In this document: positions 19,798 to 63,395 of the stretch, one piece after another | How positions within the stretch are numbered: the stretch's first letter is position 1 | How the letters are laid out: every line of letters starts with the position of its first letter | DNA from: an uncultured Eubacteriales bacterium | GTDB taxonomy: Bacteria; Bacillota; Clostridia; Christensenellales; CAG-138 | Direction: 5' to 3' | Assembly (NCBI GenBank): GCA_902786465.1 | Contig: CADACQ010000007.1 | Span: 20,600-84,599 of the forward strand | Length of the DNA: 64,000 bases | Translations under genes and position numbers: made by a program | Notes under the pieces: model-generated | Database searches by the model: none | The model's input: the letters and a program-made list of their open reading frames with translations, nothing else | Told to the model about the DNA's origin: nothing

Positions 19798-19809
19798 GGA
19801 GGGAAGAAC

Positions 19810-19962
19810 ATGCTGTTTTTGAAATACGTGTATCTGGCCATCGTGGCCCTGCTGCTGGTGCTGATCCTCACCAACATGTTCAAGAAGGACAAGTTCCTCT
19901 ACCAGCTGGACGCGGCCCTGGTCATCATCCCCCTGATCCTGCGGCTGCTGCTGATCAAGTGA
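19810..19962 (+). CDS. 50-aa two-helix membrane miniprotein, copy B (not in ORF track)
   Basis: ATG 19810 behind AAGGAGGGAAG. Sequence: MLFLKYVYLAIVALLLVLILTNMFKKDKFLYQLDAALVIIPLILRLLLIK. Same topology and central KK motif as 16374..16520. Confidence 0.65.
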   Translation: MLFLKYVYLAIVALLLVLILTNMFKKDKFLYQLDAALVIIPLILRLLLIK

Positions 19963-19972
19963 GGGCATAGCT

Positions 19973-21109: not shown

Positions 21110-21115
21110 ATCATC

Positions 21116-25616: not shown

Positions 25617-26693
25617 GCCCCCAGGGAGTTCCGCGTCAGGTCGTCGAACTGATCCCGGGTGATGTGACAGTGGTAGAACAGCTCGAAATACTCCTGCACC
25701 GCCGCATACAGGTCCAGCTGGGCCGCCTCGGGGTACAGAAGCTCGCTCATCCACAGCATGCCCAGGTACCGCTGGACGGAGGGCGGGAAGCCCATCCAGT
25801 TGTAGGGGCCGAAGGGCACCTCGTAGTATTCACCGTTCCGAATGGCGGTCACGGCCTGCCACTCGGGGCGGTTTTTTACGTCCCCATAGATGCTCTCGGG
25901 GGCGAAGAGGATCACCTCCGGGTCCCAAAGCAAAATCTGCTCCATGTCCACCTCGTTCCCCGTGCCCTTCGACGACGGGCTCTCCACCACCGCCAGGTTG
26001 TTGCCTAAGAGGTCGATGATCTCGGCGTGGTAGCTCCCCTGGGCGATGACGTTCAGCCCCTGGTCCCCGGTGACGTACAGCAGGTTTCTCTTCTCCACAG
26101 CGCCCGCGATCTCCACCGTCCTCGCATAGACCCGGTCGCAGTAGGCGGCCAGGGCTTCGGCCTCGGTCGGCATGTCCAGCAGCTCGCCCAGCTTTCGGTA
26201 CGCGTGCCCCATGGAGGCGGTCAAGGCGGTGATGTGGACGAAGGGGATGCCGGTCTGCTCCTGCAGGGCGTCCAAATCCTCCACGATGGTCTTCTTGGGC
26301 TCGCCCACGTCGATGACTATCTGGGCGCCGCTGGCCCAGGATGGGCAGGTCATAATACTTTCTGTCGAAGAACTGTTCGGCTGTCTTATCCCATTTGCCG
26401 GCGATGCCCGCCAGCTTGTCCGGGCACAGGGCGAACAGCACGATCTGAGCAAGAGGTCCGCTGACGGCCACCTTATCGATGGTACAGGGCACCGCCACGG
26501 TCCGGCCCACCGAGTCGGTAAAGGTCCGCGTCGTGGGCGGAGCCGTTTGTGCGGGCGCGGCCGCCGCGCTTTCCGGCGCTTCGGAGGCTTTGGGCGCTTC
26601 GGTGGGGGCGGGGGCCTCCGGGGTTTTGGCCGCGGCGCAGGCCGTGGACAGCAGCATCAGCGCCGCCAGCAGCAAGGTCAGGATGCGTTTCAT
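25613..26693 (-). pseudogene. FecB/BtuF-type periplasmic binding lipoprotein, interrupted by a frameshift near 26330
   Basis: The N-terminal 120 aa (lipobox LSTAC, ...KYYDLPILGQ) are in the frame of ORF 25830..26693. The rest (ASGAQIVIDVGEPKK...NGEYYEVPFGPYNWMG) is in the frame of ORF 25613..26452. The frame switch falls within ctgggccagcggcgcc on the minus strand. Confidence 0.8.
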
Positions 26694-26705
26694 GTTTTTT
26701 CCTCC

Positions 26706-27398
26706 TTATCGGGGTATATCTCGGACCCGGATGACGATCATGCCCACGGGCCGCAGGGCGGGCAGGTAGTAGGGGAAGACGGGGTCGCCCGTTTCCGTAA
26801 GCCGGGAAAGGGCCTCGGCCTCGGTCACGGCCGTCTCGGGGTCGTAGAGTCGGAAGAAGCGGATGGCGTCGGCAATGCTCCGGAAGGGCTGGCCCATGTC
26901 CGCGTCGAAGGTCTCGGCGGCGAAGGGCACGCCCAGGCGCTCCAATTCCCTACAGGTCAGGGGGTAGGTGAACTTGCGGACGGCCCCCGGGTCCCGGGTG
27001 AAGCGGTGGGTGCTCCAGTTCTTCTTGAACAGGACCAGCGTGTCCCGGCAGTGGCTCTTAGCCCAGGCCAGGGTCTCCGGCACGCCGCCGAAGAAGCAGA
27101 ACAGGCCGCCGTCGTAGACCTCCTCAGGCGGCAGAGCGAAGGCGTCCCCCTGTCGGACGGTGAGCCCTGAGGTCCCCGGAATGTACCGGAGGGGCAGGGG
27201 GGAGAGGTCCATGGCGGTCACGTGGTAGCCCCGCTTCGCCAGGGCCACCGACAGGTGCCCCAGGCCGCAGCCCCCCTCGAACAGGGCGCCGCCGGGGGTC
27301 AGGTGGGCCGCCGCCTTCTGGGCCAAAAGGTCGTAGCTCTTCGTGTATGCGGCGCTGTCGTTCCAAAAGGCGGCGCTTTCCTCGGTCCAAAGGAACAT
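26706..27398 (-). CDS. class I SAM-dependent methyltransferase
   Basis: Start MFLWTEES (ATG 27398-27396) shares one base with the ATPase stop codon (27398-27400). Motif I LFEGGCGLGHLSVALAKRGYHVTAMDLS. Confidence 0.8.
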   Translation of the reverse strand: MFLWTEESAAFWNDSAAYTKSYDLLAQKAAAHLTPGGALFEGGCGLGHLSVALAKRGYHVTAMDLSPLPLRYIPGTSGLTVRQGDAFALPPEEVYDGGLFCFFGGVPETLAWAKSHCRDTLVLFKKNWSTHRFTRDPGAVRKFTYPLTCRELERLGVPFAAETFDADMGQPFRSIADAIRFFRLYDPETAVTEAEALSRLTETGDPVFPYYLPALRPVGMIVIRVRDIPR

Positions 27399-28168
27399 CA
27401 GCTCACCTCCCGGGGCACCAGCACAGGGCCCTGCTCCGTCTCCACCAGCTCGATCCGCCGGCCATAGAGCGCCTCCAAAAGGGCGGGGGTCAGCACCTCC
27501 CGGGGCGCGCCCAGGGCCAGCATCCGCCCCTCCTGCAGGGCCAGGGCCCGATCCGCGAACCACAGGGCGTGCTGGGGATCGTGGGTGGACAGGAGGACGG
27601 TGTACCCGTCCTTCGCCAGGTCCCGGGCGACGCCCAGCACGTGGAGCCGGTTCCCGTAGTCCAAACTGGCCGTGGGCTCGTCCATGAGCAAAATCTTCGC
27701 CTGCTGGGCGAGAGCTCGGGCGATGAACACCAGCTGCTGTTCCCCGCCGGACAGGTGGTCGAAGGGGCGCTCCGCAAGATGGGAGATGTTCACCCGTTCC
27801 ATGGCGTCCCGGGCCGCGGCCCGCTCCTTCTCCCCGGGCAGGTTGAAGGGGGAGAGGGTGTGGCTGGTGCCCATGAGCACCATATCGAAGGCGCTGTACC
27901 GGAAGGACAGGGGATGGGCCTGGGGGATGGCGGCCACCCGGTGGGCCCGCTCCCGGGGCGTGAGGGCGGCCAAATCGGCGCCGTCGGCGGCGATGCGGCC
28001 CGAGTATTTGCGCTCCTGGCCCATGACGCACTTGAAAAGGGTGGTCTTGCCCACACCGTTGGGGCCCAGGATGGCCAGCAGCTCTCCGGCTTCGGCGGTG
28101 AAGGTCAGCTCGTGGAGCACTGGGTGCTTCCCATAGCTGAAGCTCAGGTTTTCCACGGTCAAACTCAT
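27398..28168 (-). CDS. ABC transporter ATP-binding protein (FecE/BtuD-type)
   Basis: Start MSLTVENLSF (ATG 28168-28166). Walker A GPNGVGKTT, signature LSGGEQQ and Walker B ILLMDEP. Confidence 0.9.
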   Translation of the reverse strand: MSLTVENLSFSYGKHPVLHELTFTAEAGELLAILGPNGVGKTTLFKCVMGQERKYSGRIAADGADLAALTPRERAHRVAAIPQAHPLSFRYSAFDMVLMGTSHTLSPFNLPGEKERAAARDAMERVNISHLAERPFDHLSGGEQQLVFIARALAQQAKILLMDEPTASLDYGNRLHVLGVARDLAKDGYTVLLSTHDPQHALWFADRALALQEGRMLALGAPREVLTPALLEALYGRRIELVETEQGPVLVPREVS

Positions 28169-29199
28169 AGCTTTTCCTCCTTCCGCATGATGAGGTAAAG
28201 GAAGAAGGGCGCGCCCACCAGGGCGGTCAGAATGCCGATGGGGATCTCCACAGGCAGCAGGTTCCTTGACACGTCGTCCACCAGCAGCAGAAAGGCGGCC
28301 CCGCAGAGAAAGCTCCCGGGCATGAGATATCGGTGATCGCTCCCCAGGACCTTCCGGCACAGATGGGGCACCACCAGGCCCACCCAGCCGATCATGCCCG
28401 AGAAGGACACGCTGGCGGCGGTGACCAGGGTGGCAGAAAGGAGCAAAGCGAGGCGCACCCGGCCCGTGTTCACCCCCAGGGCCCGGGCTTCGCTGTCCCC
28501 CAGGCTCAGCAGGTTCAGCTGCCACCGGAGCAGGAACAGGGGCGCAAGGCCGATCGCCATGGGCAGAAAGGCCAGGGGGATGTCGGAAAGCCGGGTCCCG
28601 GACAGAGAGCCCATGAGCCAGTAGGTGATCTGGGGCAGCTGATTGGAGGGATCGGCTACCAACTTAATATAGGATGTACCGGCGTTGAACAGGGAGGAGA
28701 GCATGATGCCCGCCAGGATGAGGTTGATGAGCCTTGCCCCCGGCGCCCGCCGGGCTACCAGCATCACGAGACCCACGGAAAGAAGGCCGAAGCAGAAGGC
28801 GCTGACGGTGATCATCCGGGTGGACGCCCCCAGCAAAATGGCCAGGGCAGCCCCGAAGGCGGCGCCGCTGGAGGCCCCCAGGATGTCCGGGGAGGCCATG
28901 GGGTTGTGGAACACCCCCTGAAAGGCGGCCCCTGCCGCGGACAGGGAACAGCCCACCAGGCACGCCATCAGGATGCGGGGCAAGCGGATGTTCACCACGG
29001 CGATCTCCATCTGCTCCGTCCAGGTCCTTGGAAGGGCCCCGCGGCCCGTGAACAGCTCCAGGAACCGGGTCCACAGGATCTTTACCACCGTGAGGGGCGG
29101 CACTCCGTACCGTCCCAGGGAGAAGGAGACCAGAAAGAGGACGGCCAGCAGCAGTCCCAAAATGAGCAACGCCCGCCGGGCTTTTCGCTCGCTGTCCAT
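28165..29199 (-). CDS. FecCD/BtuC-family ABC permease
   Basis: 344 aa, polytopic, with RLPRILMA..VG..L..AG..FQ and GAPFFLYLI typical of FecCD permeases. Confidence 0.9.
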   Translation of the reverse strand: MDSERKARRALLILGLLLAVLFLVSFSLGRYGVPPLTVVKILWTRFLELFTGRGALPRTWTEQMEIAVVNIRLPRILMACLVGCSLSAAGAAFQGVFHNPMASPDILGASSGAAFGAALAILLGASTRMITVSAFCFGLLSVGLVMLVARRAPGARLINLILAGIMLSSLFNAGTSYIKLVADPSNQLPQITYWLMGSLSGTRLSDIPLAFLPMAIGLAPLFLLRWQLNLLSLGDSEARALGVNTGRVRLALLLSATLVTAASVSFSGMIGWVGLVVPHLCRKVLGSDHRYLMPGSFLCGAAFLLLVDDVSRNLLPVEIPIGILTALVGAPFFLYLIMRKEEKL

Positions 29200-34038: not shown

Positions 34039-34115
34039 ACATTAGTTAGACTGCGTTTTTATGTGCATAGGCCTGAAAACGCCGTAGTTTGGGCAATACT
34101 GTAGGCAGGAAAGGC

Positions 34116-35951
34116 ATGACGGAAGAAGTTTTCAACAGGCTCCTCGATCGGGTGGAGAAGCCCGCCCGGTATATCGGCGGCGAATACAACATGCAGGTGA
34201 AGGACCAGGCGGACCTTCGCTTCGCCCTCTGTTTCCCCGACGTGTACGAGATCGGCATGTCCCACCTGGGCTCCCGCATCCTCTACCATGTGCTCAACGC
34301 CATGGACGGCGTCCGCTGCGAGCGCTGCTTCGCCCCCTGGACGGACATGGAGCAGGCCCTCAGGGAGGCGGGGGAGGAGCTCTTCACCCTGGAGACCCGG
34401 AGCCCCCTCAAGAGCTTTGATATTGTGGGCTTTTCCCTGCTGTACGAGATGTGCTACAGCAACATCCTGACCATGCTGGCTCTCTCCCACATCCCCTTCC
34501 TGAGCCGGGATCGGGGGGAGGACATGCCCCTTCTCGTGGCGGGCGGCCCTTGCGCCGTGAACCCGGAGCCCATCGCCCCATTCTTCGACGCCGTGGTCAT
34601 CGGCGACGGGGAGGAGGCGGAGCCGGAGCTGGTGAACGCCTATCGGGCCTGGCGCGCAGCGGGGGAGACCAAGCAGCAGCTGTTGGAACGGCTGGCCGCC
34701 ATCCCCGGGGTCTACGTGCCCAGCTTCTACGAGGCGGCGTACGACGAGAACGGCTTTACGGCCATCCGTCGCCTCACGGACAAGGCCCCCGAGAAGGTGA
34801 CGCGCCGCATCCTCGAGGACCTGGACGCTGCGCCCTTCGTAGGAGACCAGCTGGTGCCCCACATGCAGATCGTCCACGACCGGGTGGCGTTGGAGGTCAT
34901 GCGGGGCTGCACCCGGGGCTGCCGGTTTTGCCAGGCCGGGTACATCTACCGGCCCGTGCGGGAACGGTCGGAGAAGACCCTGCTTGAGCAGGCGGAGCGG
35001 CTGGTGTCCTGCACCGGGTACGACGAGATCTCCCTCCTCAGCCTGTCTACCGGGGACTATTCCCATCTCCACGACCTGCTCCCCGAGATCATGGACCGGA
35101 TGGAGAAGAAACGGGTGTCCGTGGCCTTGCCCAGTTTGCGCATCGACTCCCTCCTGAAGGAGGAATTGGAGAAGATGCAGTCCGTCCGCAAGGCGGGATT
35201 GACCTTCGCCCCCGAGGCGGGGACCCAGCGCATGCGGGACGTGATCAACAAGAACGTGACCGAGGAGGACCTCTTGCGGGCCTGCTCCGACGCCTTCGAG
35301 TCCGGCTGGACCGGGGTGAAGCTGTACTTCATGATCGGCCTGCCCACGGAGACGGACGAGGACGTGCTGGGCATCGCGGAGCTGGCGAAGAAGGTGTCCC
35401 GCCTGTTCTACGCCATGCCCAAGGAGAAGCGGGGCAAGGGGCTGCGCCTGACGGTCAGCGTGTCCACCTTCGTGCCCAAGCCTCACACCGCTTTCCAGTG
35501 GTGCGCCCAGAACGATCCGGAGGAGATCCGGCGGAAACAGCGGCTCCTGGTGGGCGCCATGAAGGGCGTCCGGGGCGGGGAGCTCCACTACCACCCCAGC
35601 TTTCTGTCCGTCCTGGAGGCCGCCTTCTCCCGGGGGGACCGGCGGTTGGGGGACGTGCTGCTGCGCGCCTACGAGAAGGGCTGCCGCTTCGATTCCTGGA
35701 GCGAGCATTTCAAGCCCGACGCCTGGCAGGAGGCCTTCCATGAGTGCGGCCTCACGGTGGAGGAATACGCCCACCGGCAGCGGGCGTTGGACGAGCCCTT
35801 GCCCTGGGGCCACGTGGACGTGGTGGTCACAGAGGACTATTTGAAACGGGAGTACGAGAAGGCCATGGAAGCGGTCACCACCAAGGACTGCCGCCAGGGC
35901 TGCAACGGATGCTTTGGGAGGGCCTATGCGGATCATCGCTGCTTTGCATGA
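34116..35951 (+). CDS. radical SAM protein (TIGR03960-type, B12-binding-like N-domain)
   Basis: Start MTEEVFNRLL. KPARYIGGEYN near the N-terminus and the CTRGCRFCQAG CxxxCxxC cluster. Confidence 0.85.
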   Translation: MTEEVFNRLLDRVEKPARYIGGEYNMQVKDQADLRFALCFPDVYEIGMSHLGSRILYHVLNAMDGVRCERCFAPWTDMEQALREAGEELFTLETRSPLKSFDIVGFSLLYEMCYSNILTMLALSHIPFLSRDRGEDMPLLVAGGPCAVNPEPIAPFFDAVVIGDGEEAEPELVNAYRAWRAAGETKQQLLERLAAIPGVYVPSFYEAAYDENGFTAIRRLTDKAPEKVTRRILEDLDAAPFVGDQLVPHMQIVHDRVALEVMRGCTRGCRFCQAGYIYRPVRERSEKTLLEQAERLVSCTGYDEISLLSLSTGDYSHLHDLLPEIMDRMEKKRVSVALPSLRIDSLLKEELEKMQSVRKAGLTFAPEAGTQRMRDVINKNVTEEDLLRACSDAFESGWTGVKLYFMIGLPTETDEDVLGIAELAKKVSRLFYAMPKEKRGKGLRLTVSVSTFVPKPHTAFQWCAQNDPEEIRRKQRLLVGAMKGVRGGELHYHPSFLSVLEAAFSRGDRRLGDVLLRAYEKGCRFDSWSEHFKPDAWQEAFHECGLTVEEYAHRQRALDEPLPWGHVDVVVTEDYLKREYEKAMEAVTTKDCRQGCNGCFGRAYADHRCFA

Positions 35952-49757: not shown

Positions 49758-49796
49758 GCTGAGCGTCCTTTCGCCTCTGAATAATCGCGAGAAACA

Positions 49797-49819
49797 GGCG
49801 CCGGATCCGATCCGGCGCC
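49797..49819 (+). terminator. hairpin after the aldehyde dehydrogenase gene
   Basis: GGCGCCGGA tccga TCCGGCGCC. Only TT follows before the next -35 element. Confidence 0.5.
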
Positions 49820-49848
49820 TTGACAAATCGTCCCCCGGGATTTATTAT
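49820..49848 (+). promoter_or_regulatory. sigma-A-type promoter of the TetR operon
   Basis: TTGACA (49820-49825), 17-nt spacer, TATTAT (49843-49848). Confidence 0.65.
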
Positions 49849-49875: not shown

Positions 49876-50418
49876 ATGCCTAAGATCATCGAAGATGTGG
49901 AGAACAGGATCCTCTGCGCGGCCCGCCAACGGCTGCTGGGGGGAGACCTGTCCTCTTTTTCTGCCCGGGGCATCGCGGAGGACTGCGGCATCGCCGTGGG
50001 CACCATCTACAACTACTACCGGGACAAGGAAAGCCTTATGGCGGCCGTCATGGCCCAGGACTGGCAGGCGGAGCTCACGAAGGCGGGGGAGAGGATCGAC
50101 GCCGTCCCCAGCATCGAGGAGGGCGTCCGCTGCCTTTACGAGGCCATGCGCTCCTTCAGCCGGGTCTATGAGTCCGTCTGGGCCTCCTACCCCACGGGGG
50201 AGGGCTTCGGGAGCCTGTTTCGGACCCGGCATAGGCAGCTCCTCTCTCAGATCGAGGCGCAGCTCTCCGCCCTCTATGCCCGCTTCGGCCCGGTGCCGGA
50301 GAAGGGGCAGCGCATCCTGCTCTCCGAGCTCATCCTGGCCGCCAGCCAGCATCCCGAGGTGGGGCCGGAGGACCTCATTTCATGTATCCGCGGGGGCGTG
50401 GGCCCCTGCGCCCTATAA
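49876..50418 (+). CDS. TetR/AcrR-family transcriptional regulator
   Basis: HTH SARGIAEDCGIAVGTIYNYYRDKESL. Confidence 0.9.
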   Translation: MPKIIEDVENRILCAARQRLLGGDLSSFSARGIAEDCGIAVGTIYNYYRDKESLMAAVMAQDWQAELTKAGERIDAVPSIEEGVRCLYEAMRSFSRVYESVWASYPTGEGFGSLFRTRHRQLLSQIEAQLSALYARFGPVPEKGQRILLSELILAASQHPEVGPEDLISCIRGGVGPCAL

Positions 50419-50445: not shown

Positions 50446-51381
50446 ATGTCCACATTCCAGGAGCTGCGTATCGTCGATAACTTCTATCAAACGTCTCTGT
50501 TCTATCCCATGCCGGCGGTGCTGGTGAGCACCCTCACCGACGACGGGAAGACCACCTGCGGGCCCTACTCCCTGCTCGCTCCCTTCTACGTGGCGGGCAA
50601 GCCCTACTACGCCTTCATGCTGGAGTGCCGCAACTCCTCCAACACCGCCCAGAACCTGATCAAGCACAAGAAGTGCGTCATCAACTTCCTGCCGGACGAC
50701 CGCAAGTCCTTCAAGGAGATGGTCCGCCTGGGCTGGCCCGGGGACACCCCCGCCGAGAAGATGAAGGACTTCCGCTTCCACCTGGAGGACGGCCTTCGCA
50801 AGGCCGAGGACCCGGAGGGCACCTACCCCCAGGTCATCACCGAGGCGGTCCAGGCCGTGGAGTGCACCTGGGTGGACACCCTGGACAACGCCCAGGACGA
50901 CACGCCCATCCCCGAGGGCATGGACCACTACGAGCTGGAGAAGTACCACGACTTCAACGGCATCACCACCCCCTACGGCGCCCACTTCGTGCTGAAGATC
51001 GACAAGATCCTCATGAAGGAGCAGTATAGGAACGCCATCATCAACGGCGTCAAGTCCGGGGATTTCCCCCACCTGCCCGTGGACTACGGCTACCGGGATT
51101 CCAAGAACTTCTGGTACCATAAGCATCGCCGGCTCCTGCCGGAGCTCCTGCCCCAGCGCCAGACCACCGTGGCCAGCGTCCGCTACGCCGCCGACCGGCT
51201 CCAGACCGACGTCCAGTTCACGGACGCGGCCCTCGAAAAGCTGGTGAAGGTGCCCCGGGTGTTCCTGCCCACGGCCCTGAAGGGCTGCGTCAAGTGGGCC
51301 GAGGAGAACGGCGTGAAGGTCATCGACGTGAAGGAGATGGAGATCATCAACGACAAGCGGTCTAAGGAGAAAGGAAAGTAA
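50446..51381 (+). CDS. flavin-reductase-like split-barrel domain fused to a C-terminal PCP_red-like domain
   Basis: N-terminus YPMPAVLVSTLTDDGKTTCGPYS...CVINFLPDD resembles the Flavin_Reduct family. C-terminus FTDAALEKLVKVPRVFLPTALKGCVKWAEENGVKVIDVKEM parallels the BchB/ChlB C-terminal PCP_red signature (W.xEAxxxLxKIPfFVR...A...G...IT). Confidence 0.65.
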   Translation: MSTFQELRIVDNFYQTSLFYPMPAVLVSTLTDDGKTTCGPYSLLAPFYVAGKPYYAFMLECRNSSNTAQNLIKHKKCVINFLPDDRKSFKEMVRLGWPGDTPAEKMKDFRFHLEDGLRKAEDPEGTYPQVITEAVQAVECTWVDTLDNAQDDTPIPEGMDHYELEKYHDFNGITTPYGAHFVLKIDKILMKEQYRNAIINGVKSGDFPHLPVDYGYRDSKNFWYHKHRRLLPELLPQRQTTVASVRYAADRLQTDVQFTDAALEKLVKVPRVFLPTALKGCVKWAEENGVKVIDVKEMEIINDKRSKEKGK

Positions 51382-51384
51382 GCC

Positions 51385-51906
51385 ATGAGCGAATTCGTAC
51401 CGGATTTCCACCATTTCCAGAACTTCTGGATCGAGCAGCAGAAAACGGCTAAGCACATGGACCGGGACGCGGCCTGGGCCCACATCGAGGGCTTTATCAA
51501 GGCCCACAACACCTGCGGCTTCGCCACGGGCTACGGCGACTACATCCGCTGTACCCCCATCGAGTACACCTACATGGACGGCTGCTTCTGGTTCGTCAGC
51601 GAGGGCGGCAGCAAGTTCATCGGCCTCGAGAAGAACCGGAACGTGGGCATGGCCATCTTCGAGTACTACGGCAACCCCAAGGACTCCCACGGCCTGCAGA
51701 TCATGGGCAAGGCGGAGTTCTACAGCAACACCTCCGACGAGTTCAAGAAGCTCCTGGCCTTCAAGGGCATCCCCTACGACGTGCTGAAGGCCGCCGCGGT
51801 GGAGGTGGCCGTGGTCCGGGTGGTGCCCTACCGGTTCGAAATGTACGACACCGACTTCGTAAAGCAGGGCTACGACGTGCGCCAGATCGTGGATAAGGAG
51901 ATATGA
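51385..51906 (+). CDS. pyridoxamine-5'-phosphate-oxidase-like FMN-binding split-barrel protein
   Basis: 173 aa. The pattern CGFATGYGDYIRCTPIEYTYMDGCFWFVSEGGSKFIGLEKNRNVGMAIF fits the PNPOx-like/general-stress-26 family by eye. Confidence 0.6.
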   Translation: MSEFVPDFHHFQNFWIEQQKTAKHMDRDAAWAHIEGFIKAHNTCGFATGYGDYIRCTPIEYTYMDGCFWFVSEGGSKFIGLEKNRNVGMAIFEYYGNPKDSHGLQIMGKAEFYSNTSDEFKKLLAFKGIPYDVLKAAAVEVAVVRVVPYRFEMYDTDFVKQGYDVRQIVDKEI

Positions 51907-52565
51907 ATATGAAGCTGGATCATTCCGATAGGCTCCTGGCCCAACTTAACGAGCTCTTCGACCTGACTCCCTGCCCGCCCTCGGAGTACGAGACCTTCCA
52001 GATGGTGGGCCTGGACTTCAAGGCCCAGGGCTACGAGTCGGAGAAGCTGGGCCACGTGTCCGTGCAGACCGCCTCCGGCATGGGCGGGGCCATGGAGATG
52101 GAGTCCATGATCGTGAACCCCTTTTCCGTGGACGGGCCCCTGTTCTCCCTGGATCTCATCTCCGCCCAGGGCAAGTACACCCTGATGATGGAGCTCTACG
52201 ACACCCTGGTGGACACGCCCCGGGACGAGGCGCCCTTCCAGACCATCAAGGACAGGTACGCCCACATCATGGACATCCCCCACAAGCCCAACTGGTACGA
52301 CGACATCCAGTACCACGCCTCCTGCGCCAAGCTGGCCACGGCGGAGCAGGCCGAGGACCTCTCTAAGCTCATCATGACCTTCGGCCAGCGGTACGTGGAG
52401 CTGTTGAAGGACGCCGCCCCCTGTGACGTAAAGGAGAAGCGGGTGAAGGCCGACGCCTATCGTGACGGCCTGTTGAGCCACGGCGGCCCCGCCACCGACG
52501 CCTTCCTCAAGTTCTGGGGCCCGGAGAAGACCGGGAAGCTGTTTACGGAAGTACTTTTTGGATAA
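51903..52565 (+). CDS. ferredoxin-dependent bilin reductase (FDBR, PcyA/HY2-family)-like protein
   Basis: 220 aa. Colinear by eye with Synechocystis PcyA: YESEKLGHVSV...MESMIVNPFSVDGPLFSLDLISAQG versus YQTPQFRKMHLE...[25 protein letters not shown]. C-terminal FWGPEKTGKLFTEVLFG versus FGEAWAERYMSQVLFD. Confidence 0.6.
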   Translation: MNMKLDHSDRLLAQLNELFDLTPCPPSEYETFQMVGLDFKAQGYESEKLGHVSVQTASGMGGAMEMESMIVNPFSVDGPLFSLDLISAQGKYTLMMELYDTLVDTPRDEAPFQTIKDRYAHIMDIPHKPNWYDDIQYHASCAKLATAEQAEDLSKLIMTFGQRYVELLKDAAPCDVKEKRVKADAYRDGLLSHGGPATDAFLKFWGPEKTGKLFTEVLFG

Positions 52566-52598
52566 AGAAAAAGCAAATACATCAAGGAGGAAAGAAGT

Positions 52599-53432
52599 AT
52601 GAAGGTATTATTGGCAGGAGCCTTCGGCAACCTGGGCTTCGAGATCTTGAAGATTCTGACCGAAAAGGGCTGCGAGGTCGTGGCCGCCGACTTGAAGGAG
52701 CGTCCCGAGAACGGCCTCGAGGGCAAGTACACCTTCCAGGCCATCGACGCCACCAACCCCGAGACCCTCAAGGGCATCTGCGACGGGGTCGACGTGGTCA
52801 TCACCACCATGGGCCTCACCACCGCGTCCACCAAGTTCACGTCCTACGACATCGACTACAGGGGCAACCTGAACCTCTACAACGAGGCCAAAGCCGCCGG
52901 CGTCAAGAAGTTCAACTACATCTCCGTCATCGCCTGCGATCAGCCCGGCGCCGAGAAGGTGCCCATGCTCCACGCCAAGTTCATGCTGGAGAACGAGATC
53001 AAGAAGGGCGACATGGAGTACGTGATCTACCGGCCCACGAAGCCCTACGTGGACAAGGGCGAGATGCAGCTCCTCAAGGGCTATCACGGCGTGAAGGCCA
53101 ACGTGGTGGACTGCCCCGACTTCGCCAAGTTCATCTACGACCACATGCTGGACACCAACAAGCTCTACGAGGTGGGCGGCAAGGAGACCTACACCTACGA
53201 GGAGATGGCCAAGATGTGCTTCCGCGCGGCCGGCAAGCCCTGCGTCATCAAGGACAGCCCCATCTGGATGTTTGGGCTCCTGGCGAACCTCCCCGCCATC
53301 AAGAAGGCCGGCAAGCACGACATCATCCTCTTCTCCAAGTGGACGCTGTCCCATGACCTCGTCGGCAAGGACGAGACCGGCGAAGGCTCCTTCGCCGAAT
53401 ACATCAAAGAATACTTTGGGAGGAAAGAATGA
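52599..53432 (+). CDS. NAD(P)H-binding atypical SDR (NmrA / divinyl-reductase BciA-DVR-like)
   Basis: MKVLLAGAFGNLGFEI Rossmann start. VDVVITTMG...YDIDYRGNLNLYNEAKAAGVKKFNYISV parallels the plant/bacterial DVR core, with a DVR-like C-terminal tail ...GEGSFAEYIKEYF. Confidence 0.6.
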   Translation: MKVLLAGAFGNLGFEILKILTEKGCEVVAADLKERPENGLEGKYTFQAIDATNPETLKGICDGVDVVITTMGLTTASTKFTSYDIDYRGNLNLYNEAKAAGVKKFNYISVIACDQPGAEKVPMLHAKFMLENEIKKGDMEYVIYRPTKPYVDKGEMQLLKGYHGVKANVVDCPDFAKFIYDHMLDTNKLYEVGGKETYTYEEMAKMCFRAAGKPCVIKDSPIWMFGLLANLPAIKKAGKHDIILFSKWTLSHDLVGKDETGEGSFAEYIKEYFGRKE

Positions 53433-54259
53433 TGTTCGAGCTGCTTGCTGAATACATCGGCCAGGTGTGGCCCCTGTTCATGTGGGGCGTCATCATCGTG
53501 GCGGCCATCGGCTGCTGCATGGGCTTCAAGGAGTTCGTCTGGTTCATGTCCGTGGGCTATGGCTTCGCGGTCATGTGCATCGGCGCCTACCTGCTGATCC
53601 TGGGCCTCATCAAGGGGTATCTGACCCCCGCCCGGGGCATCATGGCGGGCCTGTTCGTGATCTACGGCTACCGGCTGGGCGGCTATATCCTGAAGCGGGA
53701 GCTGACCAACGCCGCCTATAAGAAGACGCTGGAGAGCACCGGCTCCGCCAAGGCCATGCCCATCCCCGTGTCCCTGTTTATGTGGATCTACTCCATGTTC
53801 ATGTACACCGCCCAGACCTCCGCCCTGACCTATCGGTACATCAACCAGGCCAAGGACAACCTGTGGGTGTGGATCGGCATCGTGATCATGGCCCTGGCCA
53901 TCGTGGGCGAGGCCACCGCGGACAGGCAGAAGTCCGCCGCCAAGAAGGTGAACCCCAAGCGGTTCTGCGACACGGGCCTCTATAAGATCGTCCGCTGCCC
54001 CAACTACTTCTCCGAGGTCATGTTCTGGGTGGGCGTCACCGTGTCCGGCATCGGCGCCGTCCAGGGCAAGCAGTGGATCATCGTCCTCATCGCCCTGGCC
54101 CTCATCACCTACGTCATGTACAATTCCGCCAGCCGCCTGGAGCTCCGCCACGAGAAGACCTACGGCCTGGACCCCGAGTACCAGAAGTATTCCGATACCG
54201 TGCCCCTGCTCTTCCCCTTCACCAAGCAATTCCACTCCATGAAGGTGTACCGGGACTAA
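53429..54259 (+). CDS. DUF1295 / steroid-5-alpha-reductase-like membrane protein
   Basis: 276 aa, polytopic. C-terminal GLYKIVRCPNYFSEVMFWVG matches the GLy..vRHPNYfGE..W.G signature of this NADPH-dependent C=C reductase superfamily. Confidence 0.75.
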   Translation: MMFELLAEYIGQVWPLFMWGVIIVAAIGCCMGFKEFVWFMSVGYGFAVMCIGAYLLILGLIKGYLTPARGIMAGLFVIYGYRLGGYILKRELTNAAYKKTLESTGSAKAMPIPVSLFMWIYSMFMYTAQTSALTYRYINQAKDNLWVWIGIVIMALAIVGEATADRQKSAAKKVNPKRFCDTGLYKIVRCPNYFSEVMFWVGVTVSGIGAVQGKQWIIVLIALALITYVMYNSASRLELRHEKTYGLDPEYQKYSDTVPLLFPFTKQFHSMKVYRD

Positions 54260-54287: not shown

Positions 54288-54881
54288 ATGACCGTCCCCA
54301 TGGCGTTGATGGACTTCGTGCCGGTGCTGCTCTTCGGAGCGGCCTGGCTGATCCTCTATAGGGATCTCAAGAACAAGCTGGACCTTTGCTCCGGCGTGCT
54401 GCTGCCCCTGGGGGCCGCTCTGGTGTTCCTGGCTGGGTTCCTGAAGGCCACCTGGAAGATGCAGAACGCCATCGGCGCCGCGCCGGTGGAGCTGTTCAAT
54501 AAGATGATGTTCCCCACCCAGTCCGTGGGCTTCCTGCTCATGGCGGTGGCCATGCTGGCCCTCATGTACGGCAAGCGCAAGAGCGCCCGGTCCCTGACCA
54601 TGGTCTGGGTCATGCTGACGGTCCTGGGGAACCTGGGCGCGTCGGCGGGCCTGGTATGGATCGCCAGCAAGGTGAAGAAGGCCGCCGTGCCTCTGTTCAT
54701 CGTGGCGTTCGTGTGCTCCATGATGATGGGCTACCTCTCCAGCCGCGACTTCGCCCAGGCCTCCATGCACTGGATCGCCCAGAGCGTCAACACCCTGGGC
54801 CAAGCCCTGCTGCTCGTCGGCGCCCTGCTGGTCCACAAGGCGGGCCTTTCCGCCCCCGACGCCCTCAACAAAAAGGCGTAA
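54288..54881 (+). CDS. integral membrane protein of unknown function
   Basis: 197 aa with about six hydrophobic segments, RBS AAGGAGG. Last gene before a strong terminator. Confidence 0.7.
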   Translation: MTVPMALMDFVPVLLFGAAWLILYRDLKNKLDLCSGVLLPLGAALVFLAGFLKATWKMQNAIGAAPVELFNKMMFPTQSVGFLLMAVAMLALMYGKRKSARSLTMVWVMLTVLGNLGASAGLVWIASKVKKAAVPLFIVAFVCSMMMGYLSSRDFAQASMHWIAQSVNTLGQALLLVGALLVHKAGLSAPDALNKKA

Positions 54882-54896
54882 CGACCCCAAAATAGA

Positions 54897-54925
54897 AAGG
54901 ACGCCCCGGATGGGGCGTCCTTTTT
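54897..54925. terminator. bidirectional intrinsic terminator
   Basis: AAAGGACGCCCC ggat GGGGCGTCCTTT flanked by A- and T-runs, between convergent genes. Confidence 0.85.
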
Positions 54926-58989: not shown

Positions 58990-59020
58990 CGGCGGCAAAT
59001 GTAAAAGAACGTTTAACAAT

Positions 59021-59052
59021 GCGGGAATCTCCCTGGGGAGGTTCCCGCTTTC
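59021..59052 (+). terminator. intrinsic terminator
   Basis: GCGGGAAtCTCC ctgg GGAGgTTCCCGC followed by TTTCTT. Confidence 0.75.
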
Positions 59053-59081
59053 TTGAATTTGTTCGATCCTTCGCGTATAAT
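59053..59081 (+). promoter_or_regulatory. sigma-A-type promoter
   Basis: TTGAAT, 17-nt spacer, TATAAT; 40 nt upstream of ATG 59121. Confidence 0.65.
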
Positions 59082-59120
59082 ATTGCCAAAGCATCCTCAT
59101 ACGCAAAAGGAGAAAGGCCC

Positions 59121-60386
59121 ATGGAGCAGGGGAAGAAAAAGACGTACGCCGTGAAAAACCCGGCCCGGCTGGCCGCCGTGACGGCGGTCGCCGTGGGCGT
59201 CCTGCTGCTGGTCCTGGGATGGGTGTTGTTCCTGGGCCGGGTGCGGCGGCACACGGCGGACCTGGCGGCCTACACCACCCTGACGCGGACGGGGGAGACC
59301 GTCACGGCGGTGCTGGACGTGGACAGCCTTTTGACCGAGCTGGAGCTTCCCGATCCCAGGACCGACCCCAAGGCCGCCCGCAACCCGGCGGTAAAGGCCA
59401 TCCTGAACATGCAGCTTACCCTGGCTTTCACCGAGGAGCCGGACGTGATCGCCGTGACAGCGGACGTGAACGAAGGGGCCCTCAAACGCAAAGGCATCGT
59501 GCTGAAGGAAAGGACCTGGACCAGCCCCGCCAAGGTCCTGCCCCGAACGGCCCCGGAGGAGCCGGCCCTGATCGGGCAGACGGTGGACAAGCCCAAGACC
59601 GTGCTGCAGGAGGGGTATCTCACCGCCCTGCTGGACGAGGAGGGCAAGGGGCTGAACCTGGGGCCCGTGTGCGAAAAAGTGCGCTTCGAGCGGGATCGGC
59701 TCTCAAAAGAGATATTTGGTAACAACTATGTTACAATAAAGACGAATGTATGGTTTATAGTGTATCCGGAGGGCGGCCAGCGACATAACGTGTATCGGGC
59801 CGTCTTCACCCTGGCGGAGACGGGGGAGGCGGAGGTCCGGTCCATTCGGAACTGCTGCTTCACCGTGGACGTGCTGGACCTCAGCTACCGGGCGGGGACC
59901 GGAGTGGGCTTCGCCAAAACGGACGTGGCCATCTATCCCACCTACGAGGAGGCGTCGGATCTGGGCGAGTTCACGGCCCAGGGCTGCGCCATCACGGCGC
60001 TGGCGGGCGGCAGCGTCCCGGGCCCGGAGCGCCCCAGCTTCGATTACAACGGCTTCGTCCGTTTCGTGGGCCTGCCCATGAGCCATCCCCTGCCCGACGG
60101 GAGCCTGTGGTCCCCCAGCTCAGATCCTTTGGAGGAGGACGATCTGTGGCGGCTGGTGGGCAACGGGGAGTACACCATGACGGAGCTGCTGGACTATGTG
60201 TGCATGGAGATCTATGCCCGCCGCGGCTACACCTTCCCCAACGAGGATCAGGCCGCCTATCGGCAGCATTTTGAAGCCTGCGATTGGTACAGGGCCAAAG
60301 AGGACGCCCCGGAACGGTTCATGACCGCCACGGAGCGCGAGAACCTGAACCTGGTGCGCCGGCTGAAGGACCTGCTGGAATCTTGA
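59121..60386 (+). CDS. membrane-anchored YARHG-domain protein
   Basis: Start MEQGKKKTYA behind AAAGGAGAAAGG. One TM helix and a C-terminal YARHG-type motif EIYARRGYTFPNEDQAAYRQHFEACDWY. Confidence 0.8.
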   Translation: MEQGKKKTYAVKNPARLAAVTAVAVGVLLLVLGWVLFLGRVRRHTADLAAYTTLTRTGETVTAVLDVDSLLTELELPDPRTDPKAARNPAVKAILNMQLTLAFTEEPDVIAVTADVNEGALKRKGIVLKERTWTSPAKVLPRTAPEEPALIGQTVDKPKTVLQEGYLTALLDEEGKGLNLGPVCEKVRFERDRLSKEIFGNNYVTIKTNVWFIVYPEGGQRHNVYRAVFTLAETGEAEVRSIRNCCFTVDVLDLSYRAGTGVGFAKTDVAIYPTYEEASDLGEFTAQGCAITALAGGSVPGPERPSFDYNGFVRFVGLPMSHPLPDGSLWSPSSDPLEEDDLWRLVGNGEYTMTELLDYVCMEIYARRGYTFPNEDQAAYRQHFEACDWYRAKEDAPERFMTATERENLNLVRRLKDLLES

Positions 60387-60411
60387 TTGCAAACTATCGG
60401 AGGTACTTGAT

Positions 60412-61248
60412 ATGAAAACGATCCGCACGATCATCGCGACCCTGTCCGGGGTGCTGCTGACCTTCGCCCTGGTGGCCTGGTTCAGCGTCCGCCGGAACGC
60501 CGCCTTCATACAGCGCACCATCTATCAGGGCTTCGACCAGACCTTCGTGGTGGCCCTGGTCATGGGCTGCGCCTTTTTGCTCATCGCCGTGATCCTCACC
60601 GTGGCCATCGTCAGCACCGAGAACGACGAGGAGGATGAGGAGGACGAGGAGGAGCCGCCCCGGCGGCCCCAGCGCCGGCCTGCCGCGGAGCGGATGCCTG
60701 GAGAGCAGCCCTATCGCCGGGTGACCCGGCCCCAGCCCAGGGCCCAGCTGAACGCAGGCCAGGAGGACGGCTTTGCCCGGCCCAAGGCCAAGGCGACGGC
60801 AGAGCAGCCCAGGCCCAAGAAGCGGGAACGGGCCACGGAGAACCCGGACGACATCGTCCTTCGGCGGGAGGAAGCTCCGGTGAAGAAGGCGAAGAAGCCC
60901 GCGCCCCCGGCGGAGGAAGCCCCGGCGGTGGAGCCCGTGCCGGTACCGGCGGCGGAAGCGCCCGCGCCTGTGGAAGAAACGCCGGCAGAGGAAGCTCAGG
61001 TGAAAGAGACGTTGGCGGAAGAAGCGCCGGTCGAGGAGCCCGTGGCGGCGCCTGAACAGGAGCCGGAAGCGGTGGAAGTGCCCGAGCCCGAGTCCACCCC
61101 CGAGCCGGAGGAAGCCCCCGAGGCGGCCGAGGAGGCCCCGGCGGAGGAGCCTGCCCCCGCGAAGGAGGACATGGTCCGCTGCGTCTTCTGCGGCGGGAGC
61201 GTAGCGCGGGGCGTCAAGATCTGCCCGAACTGCGGCAAGATGATGTAA
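60412..61248 (+). CDS. membrane protein with acidic/Pro-Ala-Glu low-complexity region and C-terminal zinc ribbon
   Basis: Two TM helices, a DEEDEEDEEE run, long PAxE repeats, and a C-terminal CVFCGG...CPNCG motif. Confidence 0.75.
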   Translation: MKTIRTIIATLSGVLLTFALVAWFSVRRNAAFIQRTIYQGFDQTFVVALVMGCAFLLIAVILTVAIVSTENDEEDEEDEEEPPRRPQRRPAAERMPGEQPYRRVTRPQPRAQLNAGQEDGFARPKAKATAEQPRPKKRERATENPDDIVLRREEAPVKKAKKPAPPAEEAPAVEPVPVPAAEAPAPVEETPAEEAQVKETLAEEAPVEEPVAAPEQEPEAVEVPEPESTPEPEEAPEAAEEAPAEEPAPAKEDMVRCVFCGGSVARGVKICPNCGKMM

Positions 61249-61260
61249 GGGGTAGGACCC

Positions 61261-62817
61261 ATGGATGCGAAAGGAAGACAAACCCTGTTCATGATCCTCA
61301 CCGTGCTGCTGTGCCTGGCCGTGCTGGCGGCGGGGGTGCTGCTGTGCGTGAACTACTACAGCCAGGGCCGGAACCTGAAGGACGTGGACATGCGCAAATA
61401 CGCCAAGGTGGAGATGGAGGACGAGGTGTACACCGTGTCCGTGGACGCGGACGCCATCGTGAAGGATTTCCACCTGCCCAACCCCAAGACCACCAATCTG
61501 GACCTGACCCGCTTCCCCGACGTGGAGGCGGTCTACTCCCTGACCTTCCTGGTGACCCCCCGGGAGGAGGGCGGCTGGTCCATCCAGACCGGGAGCGATC
61601 GGCCCACCGCCGCGGAAGATCTGAAGCAGGGCGGCCTTCGGCTGGTGAACACCGAGTGGATCTGGACCGAGCAGGACATGAAGAACGCCTACCGGGACGG
61701 CCTCGAATACCCCCGTCGGCTCAGCATGAAGAAATACGTGCTCTGCGGCAAGAACAGCATGGGCGGCTACGTGCTGACGGTGGACCACGAGCGGATGCTC
61801 CGAGCCACCGGCTGGGATCTGCCCGAGGACGAATCCGTCCGCAAGGCCCACACGGGCTATAAGGCCATCGTGAGCCTGGGCTACTACGTATCGCCCCTGA
61901 CGGACGGCTTCCTGGTGGAGACCAGCAGCACGTTGGAGAACGTGTACGCCATGCTCCTCGACAACGGGGTGCGGCTCACGGACACCACCTGGGTCTATAC
62001 CCTGGCGGAGGTGGAGGACCTGTACGCCGAGCAGCACGCGGCCCCGGCGGCCACGCCTGCCCCGGAGAGCGAGCCGGCCCCGGCCGCCAGCCCTGCGCCG
62101 GAAGGGAAGGAGCCCGACAGCCAGCAGATCCTGACCAGCCTCTACCACGTGGACCAGACCCCGGTCCGCAAGGCCATCCAACAGGCCAAGGAGCAGAAGT
62201 ACGGAGCCGCCCTCAAGAGCAGCGAGGTCATCGGCAACTGCTTCGCGGTGGCGAAGACCGACAGCGCGGAGCACGGGAACGTCTTCCGGCTGGTGTACGC
62301 CATCACCACCACCGGCGGCAAGGAGTACCTGGTGGCGGACGCCTTCGATCTTAGAGGGGACGGGCTGCCCATGGCGGACGTGCGGCTGACGGTGGTCAAA
62401 TCCCAGCAGGAGGCCCTGTCTACGGACGCTTTCGACAGCAGCGCCTACACCGTCCACGTGCTGACGGACGGCGGCATGGTTTACGCCGAGGACGGCGGCG
62501 CGTCCCCCTTCGACGGCGACGGGCTTCTGTTCCCCAACAGCCTGACGGAGCGGATCGCCGACGGGGACGTTTGGTCGTTGGCCATCCCGGCGGACAAGAC
62601 CCTGCTGCAGCTCTTGGGCTACGGACGCAACGAGATCTTCGCCCGCTGCGGGAACAAGTTCTCCGACACCAGCGTCTATACCAAGTTCTATTCCAACTAC
62701 CCCTGGTATCAGCCCAAGGGCAGCGTCAGCTATAACACCATCAAGGCAAAGTATCCCGTGGCCGCGGAGAACATCGAGTTCATCAAGGCCATGGAGAAGC
62801 TCGTCAAAGAAGGATAA
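61261..62817 (+). CDS. membrane-anchored YARHG-domain protein (paralogue of 59121..60386)
   Basis: One TM helix and an N-terminal module similar to the first copy (VDADAIVKDFHLPNP versus LDVDSLLTELELPDP). C-terminal GYGRNEIFARCGNKFSDTSVYTKFYSNYPWY. Confidence 0.8.
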   Translation: MDAKGRQTLFMILTVLLCLAVLAAGVLLCVNYYSQGRNLKDVDMRKYAKVEMEDEVYTVSVDADAIVKDFHLPNPKTTNLDLTRFPDVEAVYSLTFLVTPREEGGWSIQTGSDRPTAAEDLKQGGLRLVNTEWIWTEQDMKNAYRDGLEYPRRLSMKKYVLCGKNSMGGYVLTVDHERMLRATGWDLPEDESVRKAHTGYKAIVSLGYYVSPLTDGFLVETSSTLENVYAMLLDNGVRLTDTTWVYTLAEVEDLYAEQHAAPAATPAPESEPAPAASPAPEGKEPDSQQILTSLYHVDQTPVRKAIQQAKEQKYGAALKSSEVIGNCFAVAKTDSAEHGNVFRLVYAITTTGGKEYLVADAFDLRGDGLPMADVRLTVVKSQQEALSTDAFDSSAYTVHVLTDGGMVYAEDGGASPFDGDGLLFPNSLTERIADGDVWSLAIPADKTLLQLLGYGRNEIFARCGNKFSDTSVYTKFYSNYPWYQPKGSVSYNTIKAKYPVAAENIEFIKAMEKLVKEG

Positions 62818-62882
62818 TTTTTTCATCTCCCGCAACCCGAAGACCGGCTGCGGGGTGTTGTGGATGAAGAAGGGAGCATGGG

Positions 62883-63395
62883 GTGGAAGAAAGGATCAGA
62901 CCCACAGCGGCTGCCACCGTGCCGCTGGAGCTGGACGCCCTCTATGAGGCCTACGCCGATATGATCTACCGGCTGGCCCTGGTGCGCACCCGCAACCGGG
63001 CGGACGCGGAGGACGTGCTGCAGGACGTGTTCTTTCGGTGCCTGCGCCGTCAGCCGCACTTCCGGGATCGGGAGCATCAGAAGGCCTGGCTGATCACGGC
63101 GGCCATCAATTCCAGCAAGAGCCTCTTGGGCCGGGCCGACCGTCGTCACGGGGTGGGACCGGAGGCGCTGGAATTCCTGTCCACGGAGGACGATACGGAC
63201 AACAGCGTCTACAACGCCGTCATGCAGCTGCCGGAGAAGTACCGCACCGCCGTGCACCTGTTCTATTACGAGGGCTATTCCGTGGAGGAGATCGGGAAGA
63301 TGACGGAAACCAATCCTTCCACCGTGAAATCCCACCTGCATCGGGCCCGGGAGGCCCTGCGCAAGGTGCTGAAGGAGGATGAGCCGGATGTTTGA
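62883..63395 (+). CDS. ECF-type RNA polymerase sigma factor
   Basis: GTG start. Region 2 AEDVLQDVFFRC and region 4 YYEGYSVEEIGKMTETNPSTVKSHLHRAREAL. Confidence 0.85.
   Translation: MEERIRPTAAATVPLELDALYEAYADMIYRLALVRTRNRADAEDVLQDVFFRCLRRQPHFRDREHQKAWLITAAINSSKSLLGRADRRHGVGPEALEFLSTEDDTDNSVYNAVMQLPEKYRTAVHLFYYEGYSVEEIGKMTETNPSTVKSHLHRAREALRKVLKEDEPDV

Follow-up and report, generated by a model that had tools for sequence, protein, structure and literature searches.

Ferredoxin-dependent bilin reductases (FDBRs) are known from oxygenic phototrophs, from their phages and, lately, from a few aerobic heterotrophs, in which they make pigments. RCCR, a member of the same fold superfamily, is a plant plastid enzyme that acts after the oxygen-dependent PAO step. 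The pre-PcyA enzymes of bacteria still reduce biliverdin with reduced catalytic sets (Rockwell et al. 2023, PMC10151467; PMC13446030). Their genes cluster either with those for haem oxygenase, an Fe-S protein, a V4R pair and a bilin-associated globin (BBAG) or with those for a B12-binding protein and a globin, and they have been reported from Chloroflexi, Proteobacteria, Acidobacteria, Planctomycetes and Myxococcales (PMC10151467; PMC13446030). The gut bilirubin reductases BilR and BilV are Old Yellow Enzyme (OYE)-family flavoproteins (PMC10769871; bioRxiv 10.64898/2026.06.10.731317). Here we analysed a 64,000-nucleotide stretch of DNA (hereafter the window) from an uncultured Eubacteriales bacterium of the Christensenellales (assembly GCA_902786465.1, contig CADACQ010000007.1, positions 20,600 to 84,599 of the forward strand). 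The initial annotation had read an open reading frame at 51903-52565 of the window as a PcyA/HY2-family-like bilin reductase with an altered catalytic set. The product of this gene, called the FDBR-like protein below, is a cytoplasmic member of a large branch of the FDBR/RCCR fold superfamily, found in gut and rumen Firmicutes as sampled.

Fold and homology to bilin reductases

When the FDBR-like protein was searched against Pfam, Fe_bilin_red (PF05996) matched residues 40-219 at profile positions 38-227 of 228 (E=0.0016, 18.6 bits), and the sole sequence match in the PDB was PebB of Guillardia theta (E=0.029). A profile built from 36 homologues matched the same PebB at E=1.9e-4. Fe_bilin_red was matched at E<=0.01 by 40 of 124 diverse family members, the best of them reaching 9.9e-12. 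Global profile-profile alignment (hhalign) of the family with a 55-sequence PcyA-family alignment gave E=2.1e-5 over 213 columns; with a single PcyA sequence, the last 22 residues alone were aligned. Similarity was weak but consistent for the window protein by itself and strong for the family as a whole, and it goes far beyond chance resemblance.

The AlphaFold2 model of the protein had a predicted local distance difference test score (pLDDT) of 95.4 and a predicted template modelling score (pTM) of 0.92, and the protein is predicted to adopt the FDBR fold, an alpha/beta/alpha sandwich with a central antiparallel sheet and C-terminal helices. When the model was compared with the PDB using Foldseek, the best 45 matches were all FDBR-superfamily chains (E 2e-9 to 2e-4), including PebA, PebB, PcyA, RCCR, HY2, PebS and the PcyA-like subunit of the Ycf2-FtsHi complex. 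Query-normalised template modelling scores (TM-scores) of these superfamily matches were 0.57-0.76 and identities 9-17%; coproporphyrinogen oxidases ranked after them (E ~5e-3). With no chain from outside the fold among the best 45, the kinship with FDBRs proposed at the outset was borne out. The label "PcyA/HY2-family-like" proved too specific, since the protein was about equidistant from PebA, PebB, PcyA, RCCR and HY2 in Foldseek and belongs to a large family of its own; it is better described as a divergent FDBR-fold homologue.

Catalytic residues and their conservation

Active-site positions were assigned by alignment with PebB and PebA hidden Markov models and by profile-profile alignment with the PcyA family, for which a Synechocystis PcyA sequence identical to PDB 2D1E was used. 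Residue D84 of the window protein corresponded to D105 of PcyA, D84 of PebA and D105 of PebS. PLFSLD84 aligned with PLFGCD105 of PcyA and the C-terminal EVLF with its QVLF, confirming two matches that the initial annotation had made by eye. In the profile-profile alignment E67 fell at PcyA His88, as had also been proposed, and Q55 at Glu76, while S53 corresponded to His74; the proton-relay residues His88 and Glu76 of PcyA are absent from the window protein. E97 corresponded to the conserved Asp of the FDBR "ID(F/M)QP" strand (PebA and PebB alignments). G195 took the place of PebA D205 and its PebB equivalent in the "DP" motif, of which the Pro is kept as P196. The catalytic set is altered, as claimed, and more extensively than claimed, the C-terminal PebA/PebB Asp also being lost. 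The protein had been thought about 25 aa shorter at its N-terminus; approximately 21 residues fewer were counted before the His88 equivalent, but these are gaps in the N-terminal region and not a truncation.

Among 124 aligned family representatives, position 84 was Asp in 113 and Glu in 6. Asp77 was present in 120, Glu97 in 117, Trp131 in 121, Lys179 in 119 and Gly194 in 121 of them. Position 67, the His88 equivalent, was acidic in 95 (Asp 52, Glu 43), with Thr in 7 and other residues in fewer; judging from this alignment, an acidic residue here is a tendency of the family and not an invariant. Position 55, the Glu76 equivalent, was hydrophobic across the family.

Active pre-PcyA enzymes also lack His88 and Glu76 (PMC10151467, PMC13446030), indicating that the altered catalytic set does not imply inactivity. 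In an account given in PMC13446030, citing Frascogna 2023, an Asn-to-Asp exchange at the His88-equivalent position turned an algal HY2 from phycocyanobilin (PCB) to phycoerythrobilin (PEB). Because of this switch and the pre-PcyA precedent, altered regiospecificity is a reasonable expectation; by analogy, the acidic residue at the His88 position could plausibly shift it in the present family.

Gene integrity and transcription

The open reading frame had a coding-type composition (GC3 0.90 versus GC2 0.36), as had all confident genes of the window, whose GC content is 63%. Close alleles within each of the two allele groups described below had a ratio of nonsynonymous to synonymous substitution (dN/dS) of 0.14-0.20, indicating purifying selection. 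Contigs from rumen and sheep-gut metatranscriptomes, libraries in which DNA carry-over is possible, crossed the junctions of the gene with both its PNPOx-like and its NmrA-like neighbour; examples over the FDBR-like gene are 51488-52000, 51463-52202, 51971-53039 and 52158-53414. Coding composition, purifying selection and contigs over both junctions together show that 51903-52565 is a genuine, transcribed gene under purifying selection.

Family size and hosts

An exhaustive profile search of 1.84 billion cluster representatives recovered 688 sequences at E<=1e-3, 507 at <=1e-10 and 223 at <=1e-30; with clusters drawn at 50% identity, 688 is a lower bound on the family. Nearly all of the proteins were 210-225 aa long, and the majority are soluble and cytoplasmic. 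Named members were all called "hypothetical protein" and came from metagenome-assembled genomes (MAGs) of Erysipelotrichales, Lachnospiraceae and Clostridia. Related loci (L numbers) were located with a 14-sequence alignment. The nearest of them came from MAGs of uncultured Clostridia and Christensenellales sampled in rumen and ileum, and L006 (RUG472) was 97% identical. For the window's own clade, sequencing runs that contained the operon were bovine-gut, sheep-gut and rumen metagenomes. In NCBIfam, the FDBR-like protein and four of the five neighbours tested were without a model, and the NmrA-like protein had far-sub-threshold matches only. Our literature search found no paper on this protein family, including FDBR-like proteins in Firmicutes, and no relevant paper on rumen phylloerythrin or phyllobilin enzymes.

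The operon and its conservation in related loci

The FDBR-like gene is the fourth of seven co-oriented, closely packed genes between a sigma-70-like promoter at 49820-49848, standing 28 nt upstream of the TetR gene, and a hairpin at 54896-54923 (Table 1). The palindrome abutting the promoter is a candidate TetR operator or, alternatively, a candidate terminator of the upstream aldehyde dehydrogenase gene. The stop codon of the PNPOx-like gene overlaps the start of the FDBR-like gene (ATGA). The flavin reductase that the initial annotation had placed next to the FDBR-like gene is a conserved partner in related modules, but it is not directly adjacent, the 173-aa PNPOx-like gene lying between. 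When the model of this 311-aa flavoprotein was searched with Foldseek, 1eje (E=6e-9), NbaA, CobR (corrin reductase) and flavoredoxins were matched, and its C-terminal helical ~120 aa were without a structural match. Against PDB sequences, the flavoprotein and the DUF1295 protein had marginal matches only; the PNPOx-like protein matched nothing at E<=1, which gave no basis for a link to HutZ/HugZ haem-degrading enzymes or Nim proteins.

Table 1. Coordinates of the FDBR-like gene, its operon partners and the flanking signals (positions in the window).
Feature	Position	Strand	Remarks
Palindrome, perfect 12+12 nt, AGGCGCCGGATC N GATCCGGCGCCT	49796..49820		Abuts the -35 box
Sigma-70-like promoter, TTGACA-17-TATTAT	49820..49848	+	Consensus match alone, 11/12; chance would give 1.3 such sites in the region
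TetR-family regulator, first operon gene	49876..50418	+	TetR_N E=7.8e-8
311-aa flavoredoxin/flavin-reductase-like split-barrel flavin mononucleotide (FMN) protein	50446..51381	+	Flavin_Reduct E=1.6e-4, below gathering score
173-aa PNPOx-like split-barrel protein	51385..51906	+	PNPOx_N E=4.7e-7, above gathering score
FDBR-fold protein, 220 aa (predicted fold)	51903..52565	+	D84 kept; E67 at PcyA His88, Q55 at Glu76, G195 at C-terminal catalytic Asp
277-aa NmrA/atypical short-chain dehydrogenase/reductase (SDR) NAD(P)-binding protein	52599..53432	+	NAD_binding_10/NmrA; also 3Beta_HSD E=4.3e-7
276-aa DUF1295 membrane protein, steroid-5-alpha-reductase/ICMT clan	53429..54259	+	DUF1295 E=9e-27; Steroid_dh E=2.5e-6
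197-aa polytopic membrane protein	54288..54881	+	35-38% identity to L012 and L016 proteins
GC-rich hairpin, 12 pairs, T-runs on both strands	54896..54923		Looks like a bidirectional terminator ending the operon

A module of the TetR regulator, the ~310-aa flavoprotein, the NmrA-like protein, the DUF1295 protein, the ~200-aa membrane protein and the FDBR-like protein recurred in L012, L013, L016, L022 and L020, in at least five gene orders. Across these modules, identity to the window proteins was ~34-40% for the FDBR-like protein, 61-64% for the flavoprotein, 57% for the NmrA-like protein, 47% for the DUF1295 protein and 35-38% for the membrane protein. A PNPOx-like gene was also present in L020, and an alpha/beta hydrolase or SDR was added in some modules. 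In other modules, the orthologue of the small membrane protein was translationally coupled to the FDBR-like gene. Judged from these gene orders, linkage conserved across rearrangements is the strongest functional clue; because it survives rearrangement, the FDBR-like protein probably acts together with several membrane proteins and putative reductases, controlled by a repressor that responds to a ligand. The flavoprotein family was also present alone in other genomes, indicating that the flavoprotein is not a dedicated donor. In related modules, neither the small membrane proteins nor other unassigned proteins matched a Pfam family.

Haem oxygenase, globin, phytochrome, V4R and dedicated Fe-S genes were found neither among the 50 window genes scanned nor in the Pfam-annotated loci L009-L016, L020 and L022. 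No bilin-binding acceptor protein was detected by Pfam in the operon, and partners of the pre-PcyA cluster type, including a B12-binding protein, were not found in the operon, the 50 window genes or the Pfam-annotated related loci. Pigment biosynthesis is unlikely because the operon has neither haem oxygenase nor a bilin-binding acceptor.

Some related loci had features of their own. L020 carried two FDBR-like paralogues (5564-6283 and 10667-11329; family-profile E=6e-74 and 1e-31) in an enlarged module with PNPOx-like, flavoprotein, SDR, TetR, NmrA-like and DUF1295 genes. Directly downstream of the FDBR-like gene in L012 (8767-10038) and L013 (8757-10037) was a conserved protein of 423-426 aa with several ExxH-type motifs; it had no Pfam match and, from these motifs, may be a ferritin-like di-iron protein. 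The NmrA-like and DUF1295 proteins of L002 (48% GC) and L008 (40% GC, beginning inside the FDBR-like gene) were 79-84% identical to those of the window, and the PNPOx-like protein of L002 was 88% identical. Such high protein identity despite very different GC content suggests horizontal spread of the module among gut Firmicutes.

The NmrA-like gene of the window, at 53039/53040, was without an in-frame 30-nt segment, GGCTACTTCTACGACATCGCCAAGGTGTTC (10 aa), which was present in metatranscriptome contigs of three of four runs; in the fourth run, contigs had it as a loose end at this position. Orthologues in L001-L007 were ~10 aa longer (alignments of 286-287 versus 277 aa). The gap is either a strain-specific deletion or an assembly difference.

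Two divergent alleles of the FDBR-like gene

In L003, L004, L005 and L007, and in L002 with its less similar operon, the FDBR-like protein differed markedly from that of the window. Its identity was 55-58% (69% in L002), whereas that of the operon neighbours was mostly 85-99% (82-88% in L002). Nucleotide identity fell from ~95% to 55-75% exactly within 51.9-52.6 kb and recovered after. Between the allele groups, dN of the FDBR-like gene was 0.34-0.39 and dS 0.54-0.85; in flanking genes dN was <=0.07 and dS 0.15-0.40. The His88-equivalent residue was Glu in the window's allele group and Thr in the other. These look like old allelic lineages swapped by recombination inside a conserved operon, and such dimorphism suggests that, within the module, it is the FDBR-like protein that sets specificity or contacts the ligand.

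Proposed function and alternatives

We propose tentatively, with a probability of roughly 0.45, that the FDBR-like protein binds a tetrapyrrole and probably reduces it, as one component of an anaerobic multi-reductase module with a catabolic or detoxifying role. A tetrapyrrole-type substrate, for which a bilin, a linear chlorophyll catabolite and possibly a porphyrinoid are candidates, would be bound in a pocket between the central beta-sheet and the C-terminal helices. Asp84 would be the conserved proton donor and pyrrole-nitrogen ligand, and the family-specific Asp/Glu67, Asp77 and Glu97 would stand in for the His/Glu relay of PcyA and for the C-terminal Asp of PebA/PebB/HY2. The electron donor would be a low-potential carrier such as clostridial ferredoxin, flavodoxin or the co-encoded flavoredoxin-like FMN protein. 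The TetR-controlled partners in the module would be the flavoredoxin-like and PNPOx-like proteins, the NmrA-like NAD(P)H protein, the DUF1295 protein and the small membrane protein. Chlorophyll-derived pigments in the rumen and bilins in the ileum and gut are attractive as the substrate class. A further step would be to see in the FDBR-fold protein and its five partners a new anaerobic pathway by which rumen and gut Firmicutes would reduce tetrapyrroles of the diet or the host (for instance chlorophyll catabolites/phyllobilins, pigments of the pheophorbide type, or bilins past the BilR/BilV steps), with a flavoredoxin-like donor in place of plant-type ferredoxin and alleles, with Glu or Thr at the His88 equivalent, that differ in substrate specificity or regiospecificity; this we regard as rather doubtful.

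Several observations weigh against the proposed reductive role. The window protein scored under the Pfam Fe_bilin_red gathering score (18.6 versus 31 bits), and position 195, which holds the C-terminal catalytic Asp of PebA/PebB/PebS/HY2, was Gly in 117 of 124 representatives. Evolution faster than that of the operon partners and the existence of two alleles are seen more typically in components for binding or specificity than in core enzymes. The substrate class is drawn by analogy, solely from the ligands of characterised proteins of the same fold, and the pair of NmrA-like/3beta-HSD-like and DUF1295/steroid-reductase-like proteins could equally mean a steroid or isoprenoid substrate. An Erysipelotrichaceae clade (P0056, P0060) lies outside the module, next to a UDG-family gene, a 161-aa hydrophobic and probably membrane protein, a tRNA_m1G_MT/HD protein and an aldo-keto reductase with 4Fe-4S motifs. 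Finally, ~8 of ~150 representative clusters (~5%) had an N-terminal transmembrane helix or signal peptide; these anchored or secreted members are P0186, P0208, P0217, P0219, P0220, P0221, P0166 and P0194/P0256/P0257. By the positive-inside rule, the domain is predicted outside the cell in P0186, P0217, P0220 and the P0194 group and inside in P0166 and P0219. Some members had a signal peptide and an extra domain of ~110 aa, and a secreted form (L021) was in an unrelated gene context. Ferredoxin is unavailable outside the cell, and catalysis driven by it is hard to picture for outward-facing relatives. The tethered members nevertheless keep D77, P79, D84, E97, W131 and the GG pair, and because predicted extracellular members keep these conserved residues, a binding-only function stays in play.

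Such a function would make the FDBR-like protein a non-catalytic tetrapyrrole- or hydrophobic-ligand-binding protein, that is, a carrier or a sequestering, substrate-presenting or specificity subunit, whose ligand would be handed to the NmrA-like, DUF1295 or flavoprotein reductases or to the membrane protein. This would fit the replacement of the C-terminal catalytic Asp by Gly, the absence of PcyA His88 and Glu76, and the conserved residues of the anchored and signal-peptide relatives. It would also fit the faster evolution of the gene than of its neighbours, the two alleles 55-58% identical in an operon that is otherwise 90-99% identical, the translational coupling to the small membrane protein in other modules, and the FDBR-fold subunit of Ycf2-FtsHi, which is without demonstrated catalysis (8xqw, 8xks). 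However, Asp84, Glu97 and the mostly acidic position 67 are conserved on the predicted pocket face, a pattern shown by the proton donors of FDBRs; pre-PcyA enzymes whose catalytic sets are reduced in a similar way have activity (PMC13446030), and most family members are soluble and cytoplasmic. We consider a purely binding role less probable than the reductive one but a serious alternative to it. Less probable still is a module for some hydrophobic compound other than a tetrapyrrole (for example a sterol, a bile acid, an isoprenoid of the phytol type or a polyene from plants), with the FDBR fold recruited to bind or reduce it. The NmrA-like protein matches 3Beta_HSD (E=4.3e-7) and the DUF1295 protein Steroid_dh (E=2.5e-6), an alpha/beta hydrolase or SDR accompanies some modules, a class-3-like aldehyde dehydrogenase gene lies upstream in the window, and there is no linked tetrapyrrole gene. 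Nevertheless, a tetrapyrrole is the ligand of every characterised protein with this fold, be it an FDBR, RCCR or, at a greater distance, coproporphyrinogen oxidase, and acidic residues are conserved at positions that contact pyrrole nitrogens in FDBRs. The aldehyde dehydrogenase gene is not conserved with the module, being ~3.5 kb upstream and inverted in L004 and absent from L012 to L022, and we judge a substrate of this kind quite unlikely.

A classical biosynthetic bilin reductase of the pre-PcyA kind, making a phytobilin from biliverdin for a photoreceptor or globin, would agree with an FDBR fold that has the central Asp and with the pre-PcyA lineages, which show that heterotrophic bacteria can have active FDBRs (PMC10151467). 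However, neither the window nor the Pfam-annotated related loci had haem oxygenase, BBAG globin, V4R, Fe-S protein or phytochrome, and identity to any FDBR was only 10-17%. The family is hosted by uncultured Clostridia and Erysipelotrichales of rumen and gut, bacteria that we take to be obligate anaerobes, and canonical haem oxygenase requires O2. Biosynthesis of this kind appears highly improbable.

The fold itself and the occurrence of FDBRs outside phototrophs were already known. A large Firmicutes-specific clade with its own residue set, a six-gene redox module without haem oxygenase and the allelic dimorphism were not found in the literature searched. If the proposed tetrapyrrole-binding, reductive role is true, the known range of the FDBR fold would widen to catabolism or detoxification in a habitat free of oxygen. 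The module would also supply candidates for gut tetrapyrrole steps such as those that decide what becomes of chlorophyll catabolites in ruminants, the formation of the photosensitiser phylloerythrin among them, and bilin reductions beyond BilR and BilV; to our knowledge, enzymes for those steps have not been identified so far. The protein and the six-gene module are small, and either soluble or simple enough for expression, and the proposal is directly testable.

Other features of the window

At 16531-23178, three paralogous AstE/AspA-like (succinylglutamate desuccinylase/aspartoacylase) genes lie with genes for a DUF6305 protein, a DctM-type tripartite ATP-independent periplasmic (TRAP) permease and a Mur-ligase-like protein; this is an unusual cluster for utilisation of peptides or amino-acid derivatives. 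The region 59019-63395 encodes two large proteins with C-terminal YARHG domains, one of which scored under the gathering score of Pfam, and a 278-aa protein that matched no Pfam family, beside an extracytoplasmic function (ECF)-type sigma factor. A Peripla_BP_2 binding protein and a FecCD permease (ATP-binding cassette (ABC) uptake of iron-siderophore, haem or B12 type) are encoded at 25613-29199, ~22 kb from the operon; they are the sole transport genes of the window that are possibly tetrapyrrole-related, and they showed no linkage to the operon. A ChuW/ChuY-type route of anaerobic haem degradation was set aside, the single radical SAM gene of the window (34089-35951, ~16 kb from the operon), with Radical_SAM_N2 and Radical_SAM, being read as not ChuW-like.

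Comparison with known systems

The window protein shares with the FDBRs (PcyA, PebA, PebB, PebS, HY2) the predicted fold, the central-strand Asp, an acidic residue on the next strand (E97) and the C-terminal "...G..(W/K)T...(V)LF" helix. It differs in having Glu for PcyA His88, Gln for Glu76, Ser for His74 and Gly for the C-terminal Asp of PebA/PebB/PebS/HY2, and it is ~30 aa shorter than PcyA. FDBR hosts are phototrophs or their phages, whereas those of the present family are gut anaerobes. Unlike FDBR genes, the window gene has no linked haem oxygenase and sits in a TetR-regulated multi-reductase operon.

The pre-PcyA proteins (Pre-1/2/3) resemble the present family in being FDBR-fold proteins of non-photosynthetic bacteria, in lacking His88 and Glu76 and in having an acidic residue at the Asp105 position. 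However, the His88 position is Asn in Pre-2 and Thr in Pre-3 but mostly Asp or Glu here, the Firmicutes hosts are outside those reported for pre-PcyA, and the partner genes in published descriptions of pre-PcyA were not found among the 50 window genes scanned or in the Pfam-annotated related loci.

BilR and BilV have the ecological role most similar to that proposed, reductive bilin handling in anaerobic gut Firmicutes, with an unrelated fold. The window protein had no OYE match in Pfam, and its predicted fold is the FDBR sandwich; a term search of the BilV paper and the abstract of the other preprint gave no mention of an FDBR-fold protein. RCCR shares the predicted fold (3agb, Foldseek E=2.5e-8) at 11% identity. 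The rumen habitat is the sole pointer here to chlorophyll catabolites. Acting catabolically on a linear tetrapyrrole and not in the making of chromophores, RCCR offers the closest analogy to the role that we propose for the FDBR-like protein.

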